Of a stretch of DNA of 64,000 bases, positions 6,464-23,418 are shown in pieces (the first letter of the stretch is position 1; every line of letters starts with the position of its first letter). Under the pieces are notes generated by a model that had not been told where the DNA came from, did not search any database, and saw only the letters and a list, made by a program, of their open reading frames with translations. Source of the DNA: Candidatus Latescibacterota bacterium (GTDB lineage Bacteria > Latescibacterota > UBA2968 > UBA8231). Location of the stretch: assembly GCA_965197905.1 (NCBI GenBank), contig CBDAOB010000005.1, positions 896,001-960,000 of the forward strand. Reading direction: 5' to 3'. A program made the translations under genes and the position numbers.

Positions 6464-7519
6464 TTAGGCGAAGCTGGGAGCGTCTGAAGGAACCCGATAG
6501 CCGACGCGACCGCTGACCAGATCTGCCACCTGCACCAGCTCACCACCCCGCTCCGCCGATAGATTCGCCCCTAAAACTGCCGCCAGGGTATTGATTCCAT
6601 CCCCATAAGGACTGAGAGTCTTCGCCGGGTCCCCGCTGCGAACTGCTGCGACGAATGCCCTGGCCTGCAAGGCAAACGCACTATCGGTCCGGTCAGATTC
6701 CCACACGGTCTCACCGTTCTCCACCACCTTGCCACGGCCCCACTCGATCAGGCAGTCGTCGCCAACAACCAGCAGCTGGCGCGATGAAGCGCCGCTTTCC
6801 AGCATCACTCGCGAGGTCGTCGCATTCGCCGTGATGCCGTTGGTCAAGCGGTAATTCACGTTGTAGACATGGGGCAGGTTCATCGGTTCTGGACCTTCGC
6901 CCTTCTTGCGGACCACGTAGAACGCGGAGGTCGCCTCGAAGTCGGCGGCGGTCAGATAGCGCAGCAGATCTATTCGGTGGATGGTATTTTCGACAAAGGA
7001 TCCGCCGCAGAGCTCGTAGCGGCTGGTCCAGTAGCGCTGCGGTTTGCCACTATAGATTGCGTGGATCAACGCGTGGCGCACCGTGCGCTCCCGTAAGAGT
7101 TCCCGTGCCACGTGGGCGGCGGGCTCGTAGCGAGTGACGAAACCAACCTGGGTGATGATGCCCGCTTTCTGCACGGCCGCGTTGTACTCCAGCGCCGTGG
7201 ACATATCCAGGCTCTGGGGCTTCTCCACGAACACCGCTATACCCTTGTCGGCGGCCATCAGCAGCTCGTCGGTGTGGCTCGTCGGTGGGATACACAGGTA
7301 GAGAGCGTCCAGCTCCTCCCTGTCGAGCATTTCGCGATGGTTGCTGTAGACGGTCCGGGGCTTGTAGGTTTTGACTTGCTTGTCGAGCAGCACCTCGTCG
7401 AGGTCGCAAAAGGACTGGAACACCACTTCGTCCTTCTCCACCAGCGGCGCCAACGCCGGCAGATGAGCCAGCGTAGGGATCTGTCCCAGACCAATAAATC
7501 CAAGTCGTACCGGTTCCAT
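6464..7519 (-). CDS. Gfo/Idh/MocA family NAD(P)-dependent oxidoreductase
   Basis: N-terminal GFIGLGQI Rossmann motif, VFVEKP, GGSFVENTIHRID. Confidence 0.92.
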   Translation of the reverse strand: MEPVRLGFIGLGQIPTLAHLPALAPLVEKDEVVFQSFCDLDEVLLDKQVKTYKPRTVYSNHREMLDREELDALYLCIPPTSHTDELLMAADKGIAVFVEKPQSLDMSTALEYNAAVQKAGIITQVGFVTRYEPAAHVARELLRERTVRHALIHAIYSGKPQRYWTSRYELCGGSFVENTIHRIDLLRYLTAADFEATSAFYVVRKKGEGPEPMNLPHVYNVNYRLTNGITANATTSRVMLESGASSRQLLVVGDDCLIEWGRGKVVENGETVWESDRTDSAFALQARAFVAAVRSGDPAKTLSPYGDGINTLAAVLGANLSAERGGELVQVADLVSGRVGYRVPSDAPSFA

Positions 7520-7586: not shown

Positions 7587-10500
7587 TCAAGCATTCGGAG
7601 GCAGTCCAACAAATTGACGACTGTAGGCATCCAGCAGGGGATCGGACTCGCGTTTGTCGGCGGCGCGTGCGAAGACGACTCCGGGGCAGTTCGCCCGCCG
7701 TGCTCGCGGCAGCAGACCGTAGCCGGAAGGCAGCGCTCGTTCACCCGTTCGCTCCAACTCAAACATCTCTCCCATCACCTCGGCAATGCCCCGTCGAGCT
7801 CCCACGACTCGGGCAAACGCCTCGTGCGGTTCTAACCCCTGCCGCCAACCGTGTCGCGTGGGCACGGTCCTGCCATCGATGTCGGTCGTCGCGATATTCG
7901 GGCCGATCAGCTGGAGGAGCTGCATCGTGTTACCCCTCGCTCCGCTCTTGCAAAGCAGGTTCAGCGGCCCGAATTCGTCGTCGTCGATCTCGTCGCATCT
8001 CGCCAACCAATGCAACGCTTCATCGGTGTAGGACTCCCATTGGTCCCGGTCGTCCTCCTCCGGTGGCGAGGGAAGATCCAGGCTAGTGCCGACGAATGGA
8101 TTCATCGACAGACCAAGGGTTTTGGCTTCTTCGAACCCGCGACGCATCAGGCGTTCGGAGGTCGTAAGGGCCTCCTCCACACCTTTGCGCTCGACCATCT
8201 CGCGCAGCGCATCGACAAGCGGCCGGCGTGTGATGAAGGCGGCACCCTTCTCGATTTTCATGCCGGGGAGTTTTTCGATCTCAGCATGGCCTTCCGGTGT
8301 CATACTCAAGCTGGCCAGTCCCACAACGGCATCCATTCGCGGATCCAGGGAGCTGATCAATTCGGGATTCCGCTCAACCACGGCGCGGATAGATAAGCGC
8401 TGCTCCGCCTCGAGCTGCCCAGCTTTGGTGATCGGGAGAAAAACCGCCATCTGGTCGCCGTCGAAATCCGCGTTCATCAACTCGCAAGCAAGCGGAGGTA
8501 GGCGCAGCGCCCGTCCCGGACACCGAACCGGTCGGAAAGCGAGAAAAGAGGAAATAGGGGAAAGCACCCATCCTGTGTAGACAGTCACCCACGAACCCGC
8601 CAGGAGTTGGTCGAGGGATTCTTCCAGCTCGGGCGTCGGCCTGGTGGGTGCGGTCGAGGGTACGGTTTCGCGAGCGAGCAGCGGGCCGAACAGGGTCCAG
8701 CAGATCTCTTCGGGAAGGCCGATCTGATCGTAGTGCAGTTCAGGCCCAGGGGTGGTAACAGTTCGTCCACTGAACAAGACACTGGCGTTGGGAAGCAAAT
8801 CCTTGGGTTTGACAACCGCATTCAAATAGGCGCCGAGCATCTCTTCGAGGTGTGTCTGCGCACTTTCTATCAAGGCCTTTGGGGCGCTGCTGTCGACCAT
8901 CTGTTGAAGGCGAGAATTGGCCGACTCCAGCTCGGCGTATTCCGGCAGCTCCTCAAGTTGCCCGACCCTCTTCAAACGGTGTTGGCGGAACCATGGGTGA
9001 GGAACGGGAAGCGCAAACTGCAAGCAGGGATTCGGTGGCGACTGGAAGGTCAACCGCAGACATTCCTGTTCGAGGGCAACCTGGATTCCCGCGATCTCCA
9101 GGCGCTGGACGAGTCTTGTAAACGACGGTGCAGGCGGACCTGCCTGTCGCAGCTCTCCCTTGCCGACCTTTTCCGCCAGCGTCTCGGATCCGTCGCGCTC
9201 CGCGGCGCAGGTGTTGAAGAGCTCAGACGCGGTCTCGAGCGCGCCGATGTTCGCCAGCATACCATATTCGTTGGCGCCAACCGTTTGCGGCCGGCCATCT
9301 CCAACCGAGGCATGTATCTTGCCGCGCACATCGTGGATCGTGCGGCCCCAGTAGACCCATCCCGCGGTGCTTGGGCGTTGTAGTCTTTTACCGTTAACGG
9401 TAAGGGTTTCCATGCCGTCGCCGGATATTCCCGCTGTCGTCATTCGCTTGCGGAGCTCCTTCTCGCTCGGCGCCTGAAAAGGAGGCACGATCGCCGGTTT
9501 GCTTTCGGTCTTCGCGATACGACCCATCAACGCTTCCCGTACGACCCCAAAATTCATGCGGGATACCAGGCCGCAGACGCTGTAGATCAGGTCGATGGGG
9601 ACCCCGTTCAGGTGCGGCATCTCTACGTCCGGGAGGATGCACGAGACCACACCCTTCGATCCGTGCCGGTTGGAAATCTTGTCACCTACTTCGATTGGGT
9701 GAGGATCCTGGAAACGGGAAGCCGCCGATTCGCTGAGTACAATCGCATCTTCAAAGGTGTAGCCATCCCAGGAGATAAATGCGGTGAGCAGGTTCCGACC
9801 GCACCAGAATTCCGGGACATCAGGCTCCGCGCCGGTTTGGACCAGAGCCGGTTCTGGTTGCGCCTGGGGGGTCCACTGGCGCATCATATTGGCCCCCATC
9901 AGGAGCCGATTCCCGTCACTGTGTTCGAGAAACGGAATCGCGGAGGCGGACAAACCCAGGTTTGCCGCCGGCGTGTTCTCCACTATTTCCAGGCGACTGT
10001 CCCGAATCTCTGCCCCCTGTGCGATGGTGAGGATGCGTCCGACGTTGGGCCCTTCGGGGGTTTCGAAGGGGCAGGTGCGGCCGAAATGACCGGGGGTGAA
10101 GACCTTCTTGCGCTCAGGAATCGACACCCGGCGCAGATGTACTTGCCGAGATAACCAGTTTATTTCGACCAGTTCCTCACCAAGCTGCTGGAGGAATTCG
10201 CGAACCCAGTCGGTGATCGGTACCCATGCGGCAGCAAGGGTTTCCTCCCATTGCATCTCTTGCGGTGCGTCTCCCAGGCGCTGCTCAACAAAGTGGAACA
10301 ACTGCTCGCCCACACAGCGAATCTCAGCTCGATCGAGATCGTCCTCGGTGGCTTTCGGAGATACAACAAGCCACCGACCGTCCATCTCGAAAACCCCCTC
10401 GTCATTTGGCTCAGGCACATCGTCATGTTCCACCACGACCTCGCCGTCCTTTCCGCGCAGAACCACCTTGACCCGGCACCTATGATGTCCGGCTGCTTCG

Positions 10501-10610
10501 GTATGATATCCCACAAGTGGAATCCGCTCGCTCAGTAATTGCGGCAGCAGTTCCTGGATGAACCGATCCCACGAGGTTTTGTGCCAGGGTGCCCCGTAGC
10601 TCAACTTCAT
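7587..10610 (-). CDS. Miniaturised single-chain fusion of RNA polymerase beta and beta' core segments (1007 aa, two-barrel polymerase family)
   Basis: Collinear RpoB motifs: GRTCPFETPEGPNVG, IPFLEHSDGNRLLMGANMMRQ, WDGYTFEDAI, GDKISNRHGSKG, SRMNFG, KIHA. These are followed by RpoC motifs: PVPHPWF, FSGRTV...QIGLP, NADFDGDQMAV at 8454-8474, SGARG, GARRG. ATG at 10610 has a GGAGG RBS and overlaps the sigma stop codon. Confidence 0.93.
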   Translation of the reverse strand: MKLSYGAPWHKTSWDRFIQELLPQLLSERIPLVGYHTEAAGHHRCRVKVVLRGKDGEVVVEHDDVPEPNDEGVFEMDGRWLVVSPKATEDDLDRAEIRCVGEQLFHFVEQRLGDAPQEMQWEETLAAAWVPITDWVREFLQQLGEELVEINWLSRQVHLRRVSIPERKKVFTPGHFGRTCPFETPEGPNVGRILTIAQGAEIRDSRLEIVENTPAANLGLSASAIPFLEHSDGNRLLMGANMMRQWTPQAQPEPALVQTGAEPDVPEFWCGRNLLTAFISWDGYTFEDAIVLSESAASRFQDPHPIEVGDKISNRHGSKGVVSCILPDVEMPHLNGVPIDLIYSVCGLVSRMNFGVVREALMGRIAKTESKPAIVPPFQAPSEKELRKRMTTAGISGDGMETLTVNGKRLQRPSTAGWVYWGRTIHDVRGKIHASVGDGRPQTVGANEYGMLANIGALETASELFNTCAAERDGSETLAEKVGKGELRQAGPPAPSFTRLVQRLEIAGIQVALEQECLRLTFQSPPNPCLQFALPVPHPWFRQHRLKRVGQLEELPEYAELESANSRLQQMVDSSAPKALIESAQTHLEEMLGAYLNAVVKPKDLLPNASVLFSGRTVTTPGPELHYDQIGLPEEICWTLFGPLLARETVPSTAPTRPTPELEESLDQLLAGSWVTVYTGWVLSPISSFLAFRPVRCPGRALRLPPLACELMNADFDGDQMAVFLPITKAGQLEAEQRLSIRAVVERNPELISSLDPRMDAVVGLASLSMTPEGHAEIEKLPGMKIEKGAAFITRRPLVDALREMVERKGVEEALTTSERLMRRGFEEAKTLGLSMNPFVGTSLDLPSPPEEDDRDQWESYTDEALHWLARCDEIDDDEFGPLNLLCKSGARGNTMQLLQLIGPNIATTDIDGRTVPTRHGWRQGLEPHEAFARVVGARRGIAEVMGEMFELERTGERALPSGYGLLPRARRANCPGVVFARAADKRESDPLLDAYSRQFVGLPPNA

Positions 10611-11203
10611 TCGAATTCCTCCCAGTCTATGCCGAGGGCTTTCCACCTTCTGCCGATCTCCCTGCGGCCGTAATGTAAGCGCGATTTTACGGTTCCCGGA
10701 GGTATGCCCAGTTCCTGGGCGACCTCCTTCACCTCCATCTGGGCGTCGTAGATCAAACGCATCACCTCTCGTTTGTCTTCCGGCAGGTCGTCCACGAGAT
10801 CCTGCAATCTATCGCGTACCTCCTTTCGTTCGAGCAGCGTGTCCGCACCAAGCGCAGCCGCATCGACCAACCACACCGGGACGTCGCTTTCATCCTCTTC
10901 AAGATCGAGCCCGGAAGCTTCCAGCGGCTGCTGGCGGCGGCGACGCACGGTGCGGATATGGTTGAGGGCCAGATTGGTGGCTATGCGGTAGAGCCACGAC
11001 AGCAACGATGAACCGCTCCACTGCGCGGAGTGCGACCAGACCCGTAGAAACAACTCCTGGAGCAGGTCTTCGGCCGCACCTCTGTCGCGCACCATCCGTT
11101 GCAGATGGCGAACTAGATCGGTGGAGTATCGTTGATGGAGCTCTTCGAACGCCTTTTCGTCCCGGCTTCGAATGCGCACCATGAGGTCATGGTCAGTGTC
11201 CAA
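10607..11203 (-). CDS. ECF (sigma-70 group 4) RNA polymerase sigma factor
   Basis: Region 2: AAEDLLQELFLRVW...SWLYRIATNLALNH. Region 4: LPEDKREV...EVAQELGIPPGTVKSRLHYGR. TTG start with GGGAGG RBS. Confidence 0.95.
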   Translation of the reverse strand: MDTDHDLMVRIRSRDEKAFEELHQRYSTDLVRHLQRMVRDRGAAEDLLQELFLRVWSHSAQWSGSSLLSWLYRIATNLALNHIRTVRRRRQQPLEASGLDLEEDESDVPVWLVDAAALGADTLLERKEVRDRLQDLVDDLPEDKREVMRLIYDAQMEVKEVAQELGIPPGTVKSRLHYGRREIGRRWKALGIDWEEFE

Positions 11204-11222
11204 ACAACCTCCCTACTGCTCA

Positions 11223-11249
11223 TGACACCGAATGAAACGGAGGGGTTCA
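11223..11249 (-). promoter_or_regulatory. Putative ECF-type (autoregulatory) promoter TGAACC-N16-TGTCA for the sigma / mini-RNAP operon
   Basis: Minus strand reads TGAACC cctccgtttcattcgg TGTCA about 20 nt upstream of the sigma start. This fits the general ECF pattern of AAC in -35 and GTC/CGT in -10. Confidence 0.55.
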
Positions 11250-11274
11250 AAGAAAAATATAGTATGGTGGGTTG

Positions 11275-11302
11275 TTGACTCTCTGCCTGGCTGCAATATA
11301 TT
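11275..11302 (+). promoter_or_regulatory. Putative sigma-70 promoter for trmB-ilvE
   Basis: TTGACT (11275-11280), 16-nt spacer, TATATT (11297-11302) in an AT-rich intergenic patch. Confidence 0.5.
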
Positions 11303-11323
11303 GACTACTATAGGTAGTTAATA
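11299..11323. promoter_or_regulatory. Inverted-repeat operator TATTGACTAC-N5-GTAGTTAATA, likely bound by the adjacent TrmB-family regulator
   Basis: 10-bp arms with one mismatch, overlapping the predicted -10 and start region of the regulator gene. Confidence 0.55.
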
Positions 11324-11349
11324 ATCAGGCAAAGGAACTGCTCATTCAG

Positions 11350-12136
11350 TTGGGCTTGAGCGAATACGAAGCCGGAGCCTATCTCTCCCTCCTGAGCTGC
11401 CAACCAGCAACGGCATACGAACTTGCCAAGGTATCCGGCATCCCGAGCTCGAAAATCTATGAAACAGCCAACCGCCTGGTAGACAAGAAGCTTATCGAGC
11501 CGGTTACCGCCGATAGTGGACGCGGGCAACGCTACATCGCCGTGGGGGCCGAGGACTTTATCTCCATCAAACGCGAGGAGGTTGCGCGCCAGACAAACGT
11601 GCTTGAGCCTCTCCTGAAGGCCGCCAGCAACGGTATGGAAGCGGACTTTATCTGGCAACTGGACGGGGCCGACGGGCTCGAGGATAAAACGCGCCCAATT
11701 GATTCGGGAGGCAGAAGGAACCGTGTTGGCCTCCCTGTGGCAAGCCGAGTTCGATGCCTATGACGACGATCTGCAAGCCGCCGAGCGGTGGGGTGTCGGT
11801 CTCGCCCTGGTGCACTACGGCGCGCCCGCCAGGCGCTTGGGGGCAACCTTTCACCACCCCGTGGAAGAGACGATCCGGCAGGAACGGGGCGGGCGCGGCC
11901 TTACCCTCGTTGTCGATCAACGCTGCGTGGTCATCGCCACTTACTTCGACGACGGTCGCGTGGAAGGGGCCTGGAGCCGAAATCGGGCGTTTGTCTTTGT
12001 TGCCGAAGACTGCGTCCGGCACGACGTCTATATCACCAAGGTTACGGCAACCATGGATGACGATCTCAAGCGCAACTTCGGGGCGGACTACGAAAAACTG
12101 CGTGATGTGTTTCAAGCGGTGGAGCGGGAGTCGTGA
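11350..12136 (+). CDS. TrmB-family transcriptional regulator, split by a +1 frameshift near 11694-11696 (probable sequencing error)
   Basis: N-terminal LGLSEYEAGAYLSLL...TAYELAKVSGIPSSKIYE wHTH. The effector-binding half (LTLVVD...HDVY) is in the next frame. Removing one C from gcgccc gives ...KTRQLIREAE. Confidence 0.8.
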
Positions 12137-17633: not shown

Positions 17634-20594
17634 CTACATCAGCTGATGGAAGTCGGGGAACCCGATAAGAGCGCGGACAAAGAAGGAAAGGGTGTCGAAG
17701 TCGGCAACCTGTCGGGCCGGTGCCTCAAACTTTCTGGCGTCTCGGTGCAGGCCGACAATCGTATAGAGATCGTAGCCGAAGTAGCGCGACGAGTTCGTAA
17801 TGGTAGCCATGAGCGTGCGGCGCTCAAAGTCGTCCAGCTCGCGGGCGTTGTTCCTGAATCGATAGGGTAGCGGACCCCAACCCTGGATGCCAAGTCGTGC
17901 CGTGGTTCTTCGCATTATAGGTAACGTCAGCTGGAGTATTGGCATCGTCTCGTACTCCATGCGCATCACCCGGTCCTGCTCCTGATCAACGAATCTGATC
18001 ATCTGGAACTTGAACTTGGGCTGGATGCTGAAGCGGCCGATCATCCAGGTGTAGTCGATGCGGTTCACCATCGTCCAGTGATCCAAACGGCGCTTGCGCT
18101 CTATGCGGCCAGCCGACTGGCGTCCTCCCTGCTGCCAGTTCAACCGCAGCCGGATTTTCTGGACCAGGTTCAGCGTCGACCAGGGTCGCAGCCAACTCTC
18201 CAGGTAGGACTCGTTAACATAACTATTTTCGTACCAAAGTGGATCCTGTCGCTGGTGGTTGAGGAACGACCGATTACCGTGGTAGAAATGGTGCACGAAG
18301 TACTGGTAGGTGTCCGTGAACTGGCGGTCCTCCGTGAAGACGTTGTACTCGTCCGGAATGGAGTCTTCAACCCTTCGAAAGTGGTTCTCCGCAAAGACTC
18401 GCCGCAAGCGCTCGTTGCCGCTTCGTTCGTAGGTGAGCAGCGCATAGGTGGAACGGTTGTTGCGCCCTCCGGCAATCTCGTCGATGTCGTAGCGGCCCAC
18501 GGCGAACATCAGATTTCGCGTCAGGTTGGTCTGCCCGAAGAGATGGTAACCCCGTTGATCGGGATCATACGGATGGTCGGGAGCCAGGTCGTCTTCCCTT
18601 TGATCCGGCTCATCGTTGTTGTTGCGGTCGAGCCCGTAGGTGTAGTCGTTCGGCTCGACCTCGTACATCAGGAACGGCTCCAGGTAATCCGGCAATGCGT
18701 CGCCGTTTCGATTGACGTCCGGAAACCCGTCGTTGTTCTGATCCTGGGCCAGGTAGACCCCGTCGGCGTCGACGCCGATGTCGTTGCGGTAGATGCTCCC
18801 AGGGGTGTAGCCTGAGCGCTTGTCGGGAAACTGGTCGCCGTCCTCGTTGTCCTGCACCAGATCCCAGTACATGGTCTCGTTCGTCAGCGCCTTTATCACG
18901 CTGCGTCTGTCTGACACAACGCCCTTCTCCTCCCAGATGAAGGTGCGCATGGTGGTGGTGAAATCAGGGTTCATGGTGAAGTACTCTCCCCCGAAACTCC
19001 AATTCTTATACCACCTGGTGGCGTTTACGAAGTAGGCCGAACCGTTGTTGGTGAAGCGCGGACTCTCATTGAAGGCAGGCCGATTCTCGATCTCGGCTGG
19101 GAAACGCCGATACACTCGGGAACGAGCGTACTCACCGTTGATCTCAGCGCCCACGAACTGCAGGTTCAAGTCCGCGCTGTAGGTGAAAATGGAGGTGTCT
19201 TCACCCATCTTGAATCGAACCCGCTTTAAGTTGCTGCCATCCTGCACGTTGCCCCGGGCCCGCAACACCGTCCGATAGAACTCGCTCTTGAAGCGACCCC
19301 CGTACCCCTTGCTCCTTGGACTATCTTCATAGAGCGACGCGACGTCGATCCTGTAGTCGTTGGCGACCGTCGCCTCCACCTCCATCGATACCATCAGGGT
19401 CTCACCAGTCATATCGAACAGGAATGCGAGCTGCCAGTCGCCGTCGGCGTGAAGGATTTCAGTGGGCGATTCCATCGTGAAATGGGCAAGGAGGCCCCGG
19501 AGATTGGCCTCTTTGCTCACGTCGATCCCCGCCTCGTGATCCATCCGGTAGAGGTAGTCGGTATATTTGACGATATCGTTGCGACCTACGAAGTAGGTCC
19601 CGTAGAATTCCCCCCTGGTCTTGAAGTACTGACCTGAGATAAAACCACCAGTGGTTGTTGTTCGCCCGACCTGACTGGATATACCGGAGCGGTTGCGGAT
19701 TACCTGAGGCACGATGTCGGGCCGGCGCTCGCCGTTTACCACCAACACCACGTCCCGCACCATGGCGCCCCCTTTCCCGTCGCGGGGCGAGTCGTCAGAG
19801 AACCGCACCACCACCCAATCGGCCAGGGGCGTCCGCGGACGTAGCTTGCCCTTGATGCTGTTTCCCGGCTCCGTGCTCATATAGGTGTGCACATTGGCGA
19901 GATTCAACCCCAACGTAGCAGCGCCGAGCTCCGCCTGCGCCCGCCCTCCTAGTAGAAGGGAGGATTCGCGCGCGAACATCTTGTTTTCGATATGGTACTG
20001 AGACATGGGGTTGTAGTCCCATCCGCGCGGCGAGTACGGGCGTTCGACGCGACTGGCCAGGGTGGTGAGTTTCAAGCGCGGGGTCCACAGGTCTATCCGC
20101 AGCCCATTGTAGTCTACCTGGGAAAGGGTCAACGGCGTAAAGCGAGCAGTGAGTCCATGGCCGACCATGGCGCCGTACCCCCAATTCCCGTATCCGTCCC
20201 GGGCGATCGCGGTGTAGTTGAACGCCTCAATCCAGGTACCCTCATCGATTTGGATGCTGCTGCCCCACTCCTGACTCGGCTGGCGGGTCTCGGTCCAATT
20301 GAAGAGGTCGAAGCCATGGATAAGGTGATTGCCGAATCCATCATATACCGCCTTGGGATGGTAATTGTCCACAAATTGCGTGCCTTGGGGCAGGACGTGG
20401 TGCAGGTAGTTTGAGTAGCGGCCGAGTGCGAAATTCCTGTAACCGGGCCGTTCGTAGCGCAGCACAGGCCGTGAAGGGAGGACTTGAGGAACGTTGGCGG
20501 TAACCTGCTCAGCCTCGAGTTGAAGCGGTCCAGCGAGGTTGGTCAGCATTCCCATCTGAACAACCAGGGTCAACACACGTTGCGCGTTGTGCAT
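17634..20594 (-). CDS. Large exported / outer-membrane hypothetical protein with acidic Ca-binding-like repeats (paralog B)
   Basis: About 986 aa. DNEDGD, DQNNDGFPD, DRNNNDEPD motifs and amphipathic beta-strand C-terminus. Homologous to 20680-23418. Start uncertain. Confidence 0.7.
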   Translation of the reverse strand: MHNAQRVLTLVVQMGMLTNLAGPLQLEAEQVTANVPQVLPSRPVLRYERPGYRNFALGRYSNYLHHVLPQGTQFVDNYHPKAVYDGFGNHLIHGFDLFNWTETRQPSQEWGSSIQIDEGTWIEAFNYTAIARDGYGNWGYGAMVGHGLTARFTPLTLSQVDYNGLRIDLWTPRLKLTTLASRVERPYSPRGWDYNPMSQYHIENKMFARESSLLLGGRAQAELGAATLGLNLANVHTYMSTEPGNSIKGKLRPRTPLADWVVVRFSDDSPRDGKGGAMVRDVVLVVNGERRPDIVPQVIRNRSGISSQVGRTTTTGGFISGQYFKTRGEFYGTYFVGRNDIVKYTDYLYRMDHEAGIDVSKEANLRGLLAHFTMESPTEILHADGDWQLAFLFDMTGETLMVSMEVEATVANDYRIDVASLYEDSPRSKGYGGRFKSEFYRTVLRARGNVQDGSNLKRVRFKMGEDTSIFTYSADLNLQFVGAEINGEYARSRVYRRFPAEIENRPAFNESPRFTNNGSAYFVNATRWYKNWSFGGEYFTMNPDFTTTMRTFIWEEKGVVSDRRSVIKALTNETMYWDLVQDNEDGDQFPDKRSGYTPGSIYRNDIGVDADGVYLAQDQNNDGFPDVNRNGDALPDYLEPFLMYEVEPNDYTYGLDRNNNDEPDQREDDLAPDHPYDPDQRGYHLFGQTNLTRNLMFAVGRYDIDEIAGGRNNRSTYALLTYERSGNERLRRVFAENHFRRVEDSIPDEYNVFTEDRQFTDTYQYFVHHFYHGNRSFLNHQRQDPLWYENSYVNESYLESWLRPWSTLNLVQKIRLRLNWQQGGRQSAGRIERKRRLDHWTMVNRIDYTWMIGRFSIQPKFKFQMIRFVDQEQDRVMRMEYETMPILQLTLPIMRRTTARLGIQGWGPLPYRFRNNARELDDFERRTLMATITNSSRYFGYDLYTIVGLHRDARKFEAPARQVADFDTLSFFVRALIGFPDFHQLM

Positions 20595-20679
20595 ACTGTT
20601 CACGATTCGGGTTTCAATGGCATGGCAATACCCAAATAATAGGAAGCTTTTGGAAAGGAACCAAACACGAGAGGGACCG

Positions 20680-23418
20680 CTAGATGAGCCGGCCGTATTC
20701 GGTGAACCCGACCAGAGCGCGCACAAAAAACGCTACGGTGTCGAAATTCTCGGATATCCGAGCCGGAGAATCATAGGTGAGACGGTCTTTTTCGAGACCG
20801 ACGATGGTGATCAGGTCATAACCGAAGTAGGTCGAACGCATGGTCACCGATGAGATGGCGGTACGGCGATCGAAGCTCTCCAGCTTGCGGGCGCGGTCGT
20901 CGAAGCGGTAGGGCAGGGGTCCCCATCCCTGCAGGCCGATGCGAAAAAAGGTCCGCGGCATCAGCCGAAAGCTTGCCTGCACGATCGGCAACGTATCGTA
21001 TTCCGAACGAATCAGCTGGTCGGAGCGCTGGTCTACCGCTCGCAGCGCCAGGAATTTGAATTTCGGCTGCACGGCGAGCCGTCCGCGGCGCCAAGAGTAA
21101 TCGACGGCGTGAACCGAGGTCCAGTAATCCAGCCGGCCTTCTCGCGAGCGAAATCCGCCCGGCAGCAGCCCGGGCTGCTGCCAGTTCAGCCGCAGCCGCA
21201 GCTTCTGCACCAGATTTAGGCCGCGCAACGGTTGCAGTCGCGCTTCCAGGTACCCCTCGTTTACGAAGCTGTCCCGGTAGGACAAGGGATCCTTGCGACT
21301 CTTCGGGCGAAAACCTCTGGAACCGTAGGTCATCGCCGTGTGCACCGAGTATCTCCGATATATCGAGCTGAAGCGGCGTTCCTCGGCGATGACGTTGTAG
21401 CGATCCGGGATGTCATCCTTCACTCGCCTGAGATTGTTCTCGAAGAAGAGGGTTTGCAGGCGATCAACGCCCTCGCGCCGATAAGTGAGCAGCGCGTAAT
21501 CTGTTGCGCTTCTTCCGGCGCCCGCCATTTCCTCTGCCTGGTAATGCCCGATGGCCAACGACCAGTGGCGACTGAGATCCAGCTGACCAAATAGATGGTA
21601 CCCTCGTTCATCCCAGTTGTATGGATAATCCGGCTCCCAGTCGTCTTCGCGAAAATCAGGCTCGTCGTTGTTGTTGCGATCGAGACCGTAGGAAAACTCG
21701 CTCGGCTCCACATCGAACATGAGGAACGGTTCGACATAGTCGGGTAGCGGGTCCCCGTCCCTGTTGGTGTCGGGATAACCGTCGCGGTCCACATCCTGAC
21801 CCAGATAGACACCGTCGTTATCGGCAAAGTCCGCTTCGCTGTCTCCGTCGTCGTTGTCCTCTACCAGGCTGTTGAAGTTAGGGTGGATCTTGAAGAGCTC
21901 GGCTCCGAAACGCCCGTGCCCGAACCAGCGGATCAGGTTGACAAAGTATGCATCTCCCGGCCTGGTGAACCGCGGAGAGTCGTCGAGGGTCTTTTCTCGG
22001 CCGACGTGAGCGGGGTAACGGAAATTCTGTGACGAGCGGGCGTACTCTGCGTGCATCTCAAGGCCCAGCATGACCAGACTCATCTCGCCGCTGTAATAGA
22101 AATTGCCGGTAAACTCGCCGATCTGAAAAGACACCCGCCTGAAATTGGAGCCGTCCTGGACATCGCCCCAGGCGCGACGGACGCGATAGTAGGACCGGGC
22201 TTGGTAGCGCTGCACATAGTTGGGATTGCGATCGTTGATCGTTTTTATGGTGGCCCAGCTGAATTCGTAGTCATTCGCTGCCAGGGCTTCCACCGCAACG
22301 GAGATCACGCTCGGTTCCGCAGACAGGTCGAAGATGTAGACCACCTGCTCGTCGCGATCGAACTGCATGGCTTCGACGCTTGAAACCAGGGGAAAGCTCT
22401 TCAGCAACCCGGGCAGGTTGGTGCGATCGCTTACATCCTCACCACGCTCGTGGGCAATGCGGTAGAGATAGTCAGCATGCAGGGGGTTGTGAGCTCCGCC
22501 GATATAGCGCGTCGGTCGGAAGCGTCCGGTTTCCGCCGAAACGTAGCCGATTTGGGTTGCCTCGGCGGCGCGGTGGCGAATGACATACGGAACCAGGTCC
22601 GGCCGCTTCTCGCCATTGACAATGAGCAGCAGATCCTGAACCATTGGTCCGGAGTGACCATCCTCGGGGGAATCGTCCCTGACCCGCACGAAAATCCAAT
22701 CGGCTATTTCGATCTCCCTGTCCAATCGGCCTTTGAGGCTGTTTCCGGGGAGGGTACTGATATATCTGTGGTAGTTCCCCCAGTTGAGTGCGAGCTTCAG
22801 CCCGCCTATCTCGGTCTGCACTCGATTGGCCAGCCATAAGCGCGTACCTCCCCTCCAGTGTCCCCACCGTCGCATATATCCAGTGAATTGCGCCTTTGGG
22901 GTCAGCAAATCGACTCTCAGGCCGGATGTGTTTGCCCGCGAGATGGTGAGCGGGGAAAGGTGAAGCCGCCCCGTCGATCCAGCCAATGCCCGGTAACCCC
23001 ATTTGCCGTAGCCGTCATTGCCAACGATGACACCACTGTCCCGCTGGATGTAGTTGCTGCCGCAAACGGCACCGCGACGGTCTTCGCAGCTCAATCCCGG
23101 CTGTCGCAGCTCCTGCCAATTGAGAAACTCGAAGCCGGTGATCTGCTCGTTGCCTAGGGGACCGTAGAACCCCCGCGGATGGTAGTTGTCGCGGAGGGCC
23201 AGTGCGGTCGGAATGGTGTGGTTGGCATAGTTGACGAAGTGGTTGATGGCGTAGTTCTGGTAGCTGATGGCGTCCCGCCGCATCATCAGCCGCTGTGGGG
23301 TGATCTCCTCCCTTTTTAAGGGTCGCTGTGACGCTGCTCCTGCCGTTTGAACCCACAGCGCGGTCAAGGCCATACACAGTAGGAACGGTTTGGAACGCAA
23401 GACCGGTCGAGGGCGCAT
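20680..23418 (-). CDS. Large exported / outer-membrane hypothetical protein with acidic Ca-binding-like repeats (paralog A)
   Basis: Signal peptide ending in AGA; DNDDGD, DVDRDGYPD, YGLDRNNNDEPD; C-terminal FFVRALVGF. Confidence 0.75.
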   Translation of the reverse strand: MRPRPVLRSKPFLLCMALTALWVQTAGAASQRPLKREEITPQRLMMRRDAISYQNYAINHFVNYANHTIPTALALRDNYHPRGFYGPLGNEQITGFEFLNWQELRQPGLSCEDRRGAVCGSNYIQRDSGVIVGNDGYGKWGYRALAGSTGRLHLSPLTISRANTSGLRVDLLTPKAQFTGYMRRWGHWRGGTRLWLANRVQTEIGGLKLALNWGNYHRYISTLPGNSLKGRLDREIEIADWIFVRVRDDSPEDGHSGPMVQDLLLIVNGEKRPDLVPYVIRHRAAEATQIGYVSAETGRFRPTRYIGGAHNPLHADYLYRIAHERGEDVSDRTNLPGLLKSFPLVSSVEAMQFDRDEQVVYIFDLSAEPSVISVAVEALAANDYEFSWATIKTINDRNPNYVQRYQARSYYRVRRAWGDVQDGSNFRRVSFQIGEFTGNFYYSGEMSLVMLGLEMHAEYARSSQNFRYPAHVGREKTLDDSPRFTRPGDAYFVNLIRWFGHGRFGAELFKIHPNFNSLVEDNDDGDSEADFADNDGVYLGQDVDRDGYPDTNRDGDPLPDYVEPFLMFDVEPSEFSYGLDRNNNDEPDFREDDWEPDYPYNWDERGYHLFGQLDLSRHWSLAIGHYQAEEMAGAGRSATDYALLTYRREGVDRLQTLFFENNLRRVKDDIPDRYNVIAEERRFSSIYRRYSVHTAMTYGSRGFRPKSRKDPLSYRDSFVNEGYLEARLQPLRGLNLVQKLRLRLNWQQPGLLPGGFRSREGRLDYWTSVHAVDYSWRRGRLAVQPKFKFLALRAVDQRSDQLIRSEYDTLPIVQASFRLMPRTFFRIGLQGWGPLPYRFDDRARKLESFDRRTAISSVTMRSTYFGYDLITIVGLEKDRLTYDSPARISENFDTVAFFVRALVGFTEYGRLI

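Follow-up and report, generated by a model that had tools for sequence, protein, structure and literature searches.

The RNA polymerase-like gene and its operon

We analysed a stretch of 64,000 nucleotides from a Candidatus Latescibacterota bacterium (assembly GCA_965197905.1, contig CBDAOB010000005.1, positions 896,001 to 960,000; hereafter the window), which carries on its minus strand a gene for a shortened, single-chain fusion that joins RNA polymerase (RNAP) subunits beta and beta'. This protein of about 1,010 aa (~110 kDa), here called mini-RNAP, is encoded at 7587–10610. The probable start is the ATG at 10610, which overlaps the stop codon of the upstream gene (ATGA) and yields 1007 aa, as in the database copy; the longest open reading frame (ORF) begins at a GTG at 10646 (7587–10646, 1019 aa), and residue numbers count from this GTG. 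An original prediction, made from the letters alone, had addressed an interval corresponding to about residues 690–1019, the C-terminal third. The Pfam domains Rpb2_3, Rpb2_6 and Rpb1_2 are found together in the one chain. Since the same genome holds normal rpoB and rpoC genes elsewhere and a third, fused RNAP, mini-RNAP is a dispensable paralog and not the housekeeping enzyme.

The upstream gene (10607–11203, minus strand) encodes the cognate sigma factor, a 198-aa protein of the extracytoplasmic function (ECF) type (Pfam Sigma70_r2 and Sigma70_r4_2) whose region 2.2 is canonical and whose linker is acidic; it also carries PxWxx(D/E), a motif specific to the family. On its 5′ side, at 11224–11249 (minus strand), lies the ECF-type sequence TGAAC(C/T)-N13-CGGTGTC, whose two halves are putative -35 and -10 elements.

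A database search for mini-RNAP returned 570 matches among 8000 scored candidates, and the 120 that were listed all measured 1001–1068 aa. Full-length members (at least 900 aa) were pooled to 295, from which 15 duplicated or truncated rows were dropped; the remaining 280 are unique and possess the C-terminus. Most of them are 32–51% identical to this mini-RNAP and show the same deletions.

Deleted and retained parts of the polymerase

The bridge helix (residues 940–970; 7737–7829, minus strand) starts in register with beta' 766, with a score above all 1000 column shuffles; its N-terminal half is conserved, while its C-terminal half is unconstrained across the family. Only ~33 residues then separate GIAE from VVFARA (the figure had first been put at about 25), with no GEPxTQ among them. 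The chain ends with a block resembling the extreme C-terminus of beta', as had been proposed: residues 991–1015 (7602–7676, minus strand) correspond to the clamp base at beta' 1331–1355, with a profile score of 24.7 that 0 of 1000 shuffles reach (their maximum averages 4.1) and an hhalign E of 2e-4. About 500 residues (E. coli beta' ~800–1304) are deleted, a stretch to which the second zinc site, the pair of trigger helices and the jaw belong. GEPxTQ was absent from all 280 full-length homologs, and in every one of them 25–45 residues lie between the equivalents of the bridge-helix arginine R780 and of R981 in the C-terminal block. The loss of the trigger loop, as claimed in the original prediction, is real and family-wide.

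The AlphaFold2 model built from 120 homologs (pLDDT 93.7, pTM 0.91) agrees with this anatomy. It shows a continuous bridge helix (940–970), a 7-residue loop and three short helices (978–984, 988–997 and 1007–1013), and contains no cryptic equivalent of the trigger helices, for which it leaves no room. When compared with 48,161 solved chains, 480 of the 494 residues of the beta' half (526–1019) align to M. tuberculosis beta' at 3.2 Å, and archaeal A', a chain that stops short of the trigger loop, is matched by residues 526–972; the archaeal A'/A'' split falls between bridge helix and trigger loop (PMC8131849). The two double-psi beta-barrels are retained, matching both beta/beta' chains and isolated barrel domains, and no new domain substituting for the lost parts was seen in this comparison. 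A separate model of the beta' half was poor (pLDDT 72.9) and served for the N-terminal boundary only.

The segment at the deletion junction (residues 973–989; 7680–7730, minus strand), which carries the pattern PxG(F/Y)xxLxRA, was considered as a cryptic trigger helix. Against E. coli alone its best window is the base of trigger helix 2; against a 42-sequence beta' profile it has no significant register (P 0.41–0.68), and the candidate was rejected. A relative with an intact trigger loop (P0271) carries a homologous segment, PKGFLSRAL, after that loop, so that, judged by sequence, residues 973–989 are most likely the switch 1 that follows the trigger loop (beta' ~1305–1314).

Profile alignment with a hidden Markov model (HMM) to E. 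coli beta and beta' gave the remaining deletion map. Of beta, the protein retains ~119–147, ~445–581 (the lobe is deleted), 653–707, 786–823 and then 1054 to the C-terminus. The flap region (beta ~824–1053) is excised, HMM position 309 being beta 823 and position 312 beta 1054, and in 90% of the homologs this span measures 14–15 residues. The equivalents of beta E813/D814 (E299/D300) and, after them, the deletion point lie at 9699–9752 (minus strand), and the GDKxxxRHGxKG motif with the K1065 and K1073 equivalents is intact beyond it (9651–9686, minus strand); part of beta switch 3 is also removed. Of beta' there remain a short N-terminal strand, ~99–115 (the zinc domain is deleted) and 267–309 (clamp head and lid are deleted), followed by switch 2 (the rudder is deleted), 345–513 with NADFDGD, 586–640, 720–~800 and 1331–1355. 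Segment 267–309 is the clamp coiled coil (residues 568–611; 8814–8945, minus strand), which is whole while the surrounding clamp head, lid, rudder and zinc domain are deleted. Lost in all are both zinc sites, the lobe, flap, lid, rudder and jaw. The second zinc site had been reported missing, which is correct but incomplete: with beta' ~28–98 and ~800–1304 deleted the first site is gone as well, and the conserved cysteines are isolated, forming no conserved cluster. The protein reaches 166 bits against the NCBIfam cut-off of 801 for rpoB and 94 against 963 for rpoC. Retained are the protrusion, the dock, the clamp coiled coil, the F-loop, the bridge helix and the ED/K/K/R/H active-site residues of beta, together with the upstream template contacts; the MP motif region of beta is also conserved (M343 and P344 in 225/225).

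The catalytic triad is intact, as predicted: the Mg-binding loop NADFDGD occupies 8454–8474 (minus strand), with D727, D729 and D731 at 8454–8468. The claim that these aspartates are under selection holds across the family, where D462 is kept in 278/280, D464 in 277/280 and D460 in 269/280; for comparison, the median column has a conservation of 0.60. D460 has been lost on ~6 branches of the family tree. Eight members read NFDGD, the first catalytic Asp being replaced by Asn, on ~3 branches (L005, L006, P0094, P0100, P0103, P0106, P0107 and P0118); L005 and L006 have intact ORFs with an adjoining sigma gene. Members of this kind offer natural controls for catalysis.

The replacement of the NRAPTLHR block, also proposed at the outset, was confirmed, the aligned residues being YTGWVLSP (8556–8579, minus strand) with T691 for R425 and W693 for P427. 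The copy in a sister species (L001, 92% identical) deviates too, reading YCGWVISP (R425 to C), and YTGWVLSP is therefore not an assembly error. One contig of sample X1 spans 8445–11400, and the two letters in which it differs lie outside the YTGW codons. Since X1 may be the very sample from which the window comes and samples X3 and X4 barely cover that bin, this contig is not independent support. The arginine loss holds for these two species and not as a family trait, since 247/280 homologs keep the residue and the loss seen here is one of ~15 separate losses on a fast tree. Thus, among the losses whose conservation across homologs was at issue, those of trigger loop and zinc sites are family-wide and that of the arginine is not. 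Eight residues are described as invariant in all two-barrel RNAPs, namely the three Asp, beta D814, K1065 and K1073, R425 and P427 (PMC2919709). This mini-RNAP has six of the eight, and 75/280 homologs miss at least one.

Functional roles, which we take to be those known from RNAP structures, were assigned to the counted residues, and conservation then falls stepwise across the active site. Residues on the RNA side and at the initiating site average 97%, those for the incoming nucleoside triphosphate (NTP) and the second metal 89% (N458 202/280, R731 219/280, R1106 276/280), and upstream template contacts 87%, compared with 17% for bridge-helix and downstream-template residues (T790 8/280, A791 35/280, Y795 43/280) and a column median of 60%. 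In the coiled coil, several sigma-binding positions are changed (R275 0/280, E295 0/280, A302 45/280), while others are mostly kept (N276 257/280, R278 232/280, P288 272/280, and R281). In E. coli, R275 and E295 are needed for sigma70 binding, and their substitution impairs holoenzyme formation (PMC8321222). The rifamycin pocket is partly kept (Q513 174/225, H526 205/225, R529 208/225), S531, L533 and D516 being poorly conserved.

Family, sigma partner and relatives

By the names in record titles, members occur in Latescibacterota, Poribacteria, Chloroflexota, Planctomycetota, Myxococcales, Hydrogenedentota and Armatimonadetes, seven phylum-level names. In the window's own phylum, 53/151 sampled genomes have the gene, including 20/20 of one genus, and a single internal stop was seen among 55 matches. 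The gene is chromosomal. Searches of 50,697 phages and 72,556 plasmids gave no record covering 80% of the query, and the 80 viral loci listed from a viral collection gave distant matches only, with no full-length copy. The ratio of nonsynonymous to synonymous substitution rates (dN/dS) is 0.11–0.21 in 10/10 pairs, indicating purifying selection, and 0.03–0.06 for rpoC in three of the same genome pairs; mini-RNAP is selected, but less tightly than the real RNAP. Decay of a pseudogene or an assembly artefact could be invoked from the higher dN/dS and the one internal stop, yet the deletions shared by 280 full-length homologs, the purifying selection and the presence throughout one genus refute this explanation.

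No description of the family was found in a full-text literature search, a provisional result, as Iyer and Aravind 2012, the likeliest earlier mention, lies outside its coverage; a supplementary file to an ECF re-classification (PMC7826278) mentions neither Rpb1 nor Rpb2. Matches in the ESM Atlas were to automatically named clusters only; several other unnamed clusters (ranks 3–21) consist of 1160–1790-aa single-chain beta-beta'-like proteins, some with Rpb1_5. Mini-RNAP represents a real, widespread and apparently undescribed variant of the bacterial two-barrel RNAP lineage.

The one conserved partner of the gene is the sigma gene. It lies directly upstream on the same strand in 19/20 genome loci (the twentieth locus starts inside the gene), within 1.5 kb in 24/25 further loci (1.9 kb away in the last) and next to mini-RNAP in 58 of the 61 metagenome loci with more than 700 nt of upstream DNA; of all 75 metagenome loci, 3 lack the sigma gene and 14 have too little flank to count. 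The sigma gene often overlaps the mini-RNAP start. No other neighbour family occurs in more than 4 of the 75 metagenome loci, and no conserved anti-sigma was found. The sigma of the window is 38–53% identical to those of other loci and 89% to that of L001. The mini-RNAP-linked sigmas are a distinct group, with D46 and Q49 in 106/106, P109 in 99/106 and W111 in 95/106, and PxWxx(D/E) is present in 1 of the 16 ECF-like matches of this genome. Two divergent sigma/mini-RNAP operons occur in one genome (G063; L139, L140). In one genus an ABC exporter gene stands between sigma and mini-RNAP in four genomes (L131, L134–L136), and an unassigned 381–396-aa gene does so in two others (L132–L133).

A relaxed form of the promoter motif, GAAC-N15-GGTGTC, lies within ~330 nt 5′ of the sigma gene at 81/93 loci, compared with 0/93 for the reversed pattern. 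The exact pattern occurs in 48/59 genomes, typically in one or two copies, most of which lie at the operon itself. Two genomes of Poribacteria have a further copy in front of ABC-2 permease genes arranged in tandem (L148:3314–6476, L149:3390–6555), a possible regulon member. Scanning this genome with a position weight matrix is circular for the operon's own site, and other matches score at most 18.2; scans for sigma70-type promoters and terminators gave results at chance level. A complex prediction for sigma (2–196) and mini-RNAP (212–1016) scored 0.01; controls were not folded, and the result is counted neither way.

The second extra RNAP of this genome is a 1917-aa single-chain alpha-beta-beta' fusion (G000:C3:765313–771066; L151:5314–11067). 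It keeps RAP, NADFDGD, zinc site 2 and the trigger loop, with lobe, flap tip and zinc domain reduced; no sigma neighbour was seen, its dN/dS is 0.22, and P0267 and P0271 are relatives. At a strict threshold it is present in 4/151 genomes of the phylum versus 53/151 for mini-RNAP, and it is not a regular partner of the latter. Trees of beta and of beta' each join 37 mini-RNAPs with six such fusions (support 0.97 and 0.94), a grouping that long branches make fallible. Consistent with it are the lobe and zinc-domain deletions common to the fusion of the same genome and the C-terminus of P0271. A longer fusion (1785–5000 aa) with the family C-terminus was not found, which is weak evidence, as shorter split forms fall outside that search.

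Mini-RNAP resembles bacterial beta and beta', including the fusions of Helicobacter and Wolbachia type, with Z scores of 27.6 to a bacterial beta chain and 17.2 to a beta' chain. It differs from them in having ~37% of their length and neither trigger loop, zinc sites, lobe, flap, lid, rudder nor jaw; it scores far below every NCBIfam cut-off and is a paralog beside normal rpoBC. The yeast linear-plasmid protein K2ORF6p is likewise a beta-beta' fusion (~970 aa), and its large chain is described as having no trigger, lid or rudder homology (PMC2919709, PMC6211774). There, however, K2ORF7p supplies the missing beta' regions including the trigger loop (PMC6211774), and the clamp coiled coil is reported absent, whereas mini-RNAP holds coiled coil and C-terminal block in one chain with no donor gene seen, is bacterial in origin and has an ECF sigma as partner. 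With YonO, crAss gp66, P23-45 gp96/gp64 and QDE-1 it shares the single chain of ~100 kDa and the aspartate triad. The structural match to these is weak (Z 6.9–10.4); YonO-type enzymes have few residues in common with cellular RNAP, while mini-RNAP has long collinear homology to beta/beta', from which it derives by deletion, and no full-length phage, plasmid or viral match. Archaeal PolD is also a two-barrel polymerase, described as having no canonical bridge helix or trigger loop (PMC6355029, PMC8131849), but it is a DNA polymerase with substitute domains; mini-RNAP keeps RNAP-type ribose and RNA contacts and has no new domain.

By fold and descent mini-RNAP belongs to the bacterial two-barrel RNAP lineage, within which it is neither canonical, nor YonO-like, nor of the ORF6/ORF7 type. 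Its anatomy, with two double-psi barrels, places it in the two-barrel superfamily, although the full set of eight invariants is incomplete in this protein and largely present in the family. As for a separate small trigger-helix subunit, tblastn against this genome gave no such ORF, and no third conserved neighbour was found.

A Gfo/Idh/MocA oxidoreductase gene (6464–7519, minus strand) follows mini-RNAP by 68 nt on the same strand; it is syntenic in L001 and is not a family-wide neighbour. Divergent from the sigma gene is a TrmB-family regulator gene (11350–12136, plus strand) split into two ORFs in different frames, and L001 has an in-frame stop at a similar place. Further away, two tandem ORFs of 1030 and 912 aa, alike in make-up and with Asp-rich repeats (17634–23418, minus strand), sit downstream of an RND-type transporter gene (assigned by eye).

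Possible functions of mini-RNAP

The original prediction held that mini-RNAP has a slow, non-processive or repurposed active site. Ordinary processive transcription is indeed unlikely, because the elements for downstream DNA, RNA exit and strand separation are deleted along with the trigger loop; mini-RNAP probably does something other than ordinary transcription. The site is under selection, as proposed. That prediction had, on the other hand, passed over the strongest context, namely a co-translated ECF sigma, an auto-promoter and no other conserved partner, which speaks for regulation or sensing no less than for the making of a product. In ECF sigma/anti-sigma operons, an auto-promoter is followed by the sigma gene and then by its translationally coupled partner. 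The mini-RNAP operon has the same layout, with mini-RNAP downstream of the sigma gene where an anti-sigma would be expected (58/61 and 19/20 loci); the likeness is one of gene layout, the partner being an RNAP core remnant and not a membrane or zinc anti-sigma.

What is observed comprises the anatomy, the conservation and selection, the pairing of the two genes and the promoter motif. The reading we tentatively prefer is that mini-RNAP is a regulatory partner or sensor for its sigma, a non-processive core remnant that binds Mg and an RNA end or NTP and performs slow chemistry at most. The two genes would form a regulatory module. The sigma factor would transcribe its own operon with the host core RNAP, because the conserved -35 element needs a flap and mini-RNAP has none. 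Mini-RNAP retains the two barrels, the Mg site, a pocket for the RNA:DNA hybrid and the clamp coiled coil, and seems to have lost the means to load downstream DNA, translocate, and separate and export RNA. It would most likely bind the cognate sigma through the remodelled coiled coil, in the usual place of an anti-sigma. Sigma may be controlled by what the open cleft binds, namely Mg and an RNA 3′ end, a short hybrid, an NTP or an inhibitor directed at RNAP, with nucleotide addition or hydrolysis presumably slow and secondary.

We count in favour of this sensor role the strict sigma pairing, the lack of a conserved anti-sigma, the whole coiled coil amid deletions, the stepwise conservation (97%, 89%, 17%), the 75/280 homologs missing an invariant, the R425 and D460 losses, the dN/dS above that of rpoC, and the promoter motif at ABC-2 permease genes together with the ABC exporter insertions. 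A trigger-loop-deleted Pyrococcus RNAP, which forms open complexes and cannot initiate (PMC3737540), is counted likewise. Several points weigh against it. The absence of R275 and E295 in 280/280 could mean that no sigma is bound at all. Regulated output beyond the operon is thin, because in most of the genomes searched the exact promoter occurs only once or twice and mainly at the operon. All eight invariants are kept by 205/280 homologs, which fits a working enzyme, as does R1106 (276/280). In addition, the register of K334/R339 is uncertain next to a deletion, homolog counts include kin and are not independent, and sigma binding, ligand and activity are all predicted from sequence.

The main rival, which we regard as possible though rather unlikely, is the leading idea of the original prediction: mini-RNAP would work as a ribonucleotidyl transferase or hydrolase, slow and non-processive, and its product would be what matters. 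It might make pppNpN or short RNAs in a bubble opened by sigma, extend primers on R-loops or single-stranded templates, or trim RNA ends. Neither the Mg ligands nor the two NTP sites have changed much, 205/280 homologs have the full set of invariants, and F-loop and upstream template contacts are retained. The Pyrococcus deletion mutant still extends an elongation scaffold at 0.42 s-1 (~30-fold slower), with intact intrinsic RNA hydrolysis, and an R423A substitution has only moderate effects (PMC3737540). The same deletion, however, abolishes first-bond synthesis (PMC3737540), D460N and R425 losses recur in intact, sigma-linked genes, and no recurring neighbour hints at the use of a product. 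Sigma and mini-RNAP might instead constitute a private, promoter-specific holoenzyme, processive and independent of a trigger loop, which we judge improbable. The pairing with a distinctive sigma is strict, the remodelled coiled coil could exclude host sigmas, and the family is sister to fusions that have a trigger loop. Moreover, YonO transcribes processively although no homology to the trigger loop can be detected in it (PMC5467207), and by this analogy the missing of a recognisable trigger loop would not in itself exclude processivity; solved single-chain relatives keep the loop's N-terminal portion (bioRxiv 2022.12.01.518664). Such a machine would still have no flap with which to place sigma region 4 on the conserved -35 element, and it would have to do without lobe, jaw, clamp head, lid and rudder, as well as without the template residues of the bridge helix.

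Two further proposals fare worse. An inducible decoy, shielding the host polymerase by capturing phage proteins or antibiotics that target RNAP, would fit the retained active-site and rifamycin-pocket residues (Q513, H526, R529) and the ABC exporter genes under the same promoter in some genomes. Yet conservation is poor at S531, L533 and D516, the neighbourhood has no recurring resistance or defence genes, and most of the surfaces bound by phage factors (flap, jaw) are deleted here, making the decoy quite improbable. Hardly probable at all is a trigger loop supplied in trans by a small subunit, for which K2ORF7p (PMC6211774) and the archaeal A'/A'' split (PMC8131849) are precedents. In contrast to the split, mini-RNAP has its C-terminal clamp block in one covalent chain with the bridge helix, there is no third conserved gene, and the bridge-helix residues that would face the loop are unconstrained. 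A tblastn search of this genome gave no extra trigger-loop ORF, though a very divergent donor elsewhere could escape it; the only matches were rpoC and the alpha-beta-beta' fusion, the latter in 4/151 genomes against 53/151.

Returning to the sensor role, it might, still more tentatively, extend to the whole family as a widespread signalling module, in which a miniaturised RNAP core was exapted as an ECF anti-sigma or sensor whose cleft reads RNA ends, NTPs or RNAP poisons and possibly makes a short-RNA or dinucleotide signal. Part of the same joint proposal, and held with the same reserve, is a reductive series from canonical RNAP through the alpha-beta-beta' fusion to the trigger-loop-less mini-RNAP.

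To our knowledge, every cellular RNAP is taken to have a trigger loop. Mini-RNAP is a natural, selected bacterial-type core of ~110 kDa without one; about one-third of the genomes sampled in one phylum have it, and it occurs in six further phyla. It is a ready-made reagent for studying catalysis without a trigger loop, assembly without alpha, and sigma specificity, and it can mislead surveys of these phyla that use rpoB/rpoC as marker genes. If mini-RNAP makes short RNAs, it would be a new nucleotide-product enzyme; if it regulates its sigma, ECF control would have a form new to it, with RNAP itself as the sensor.

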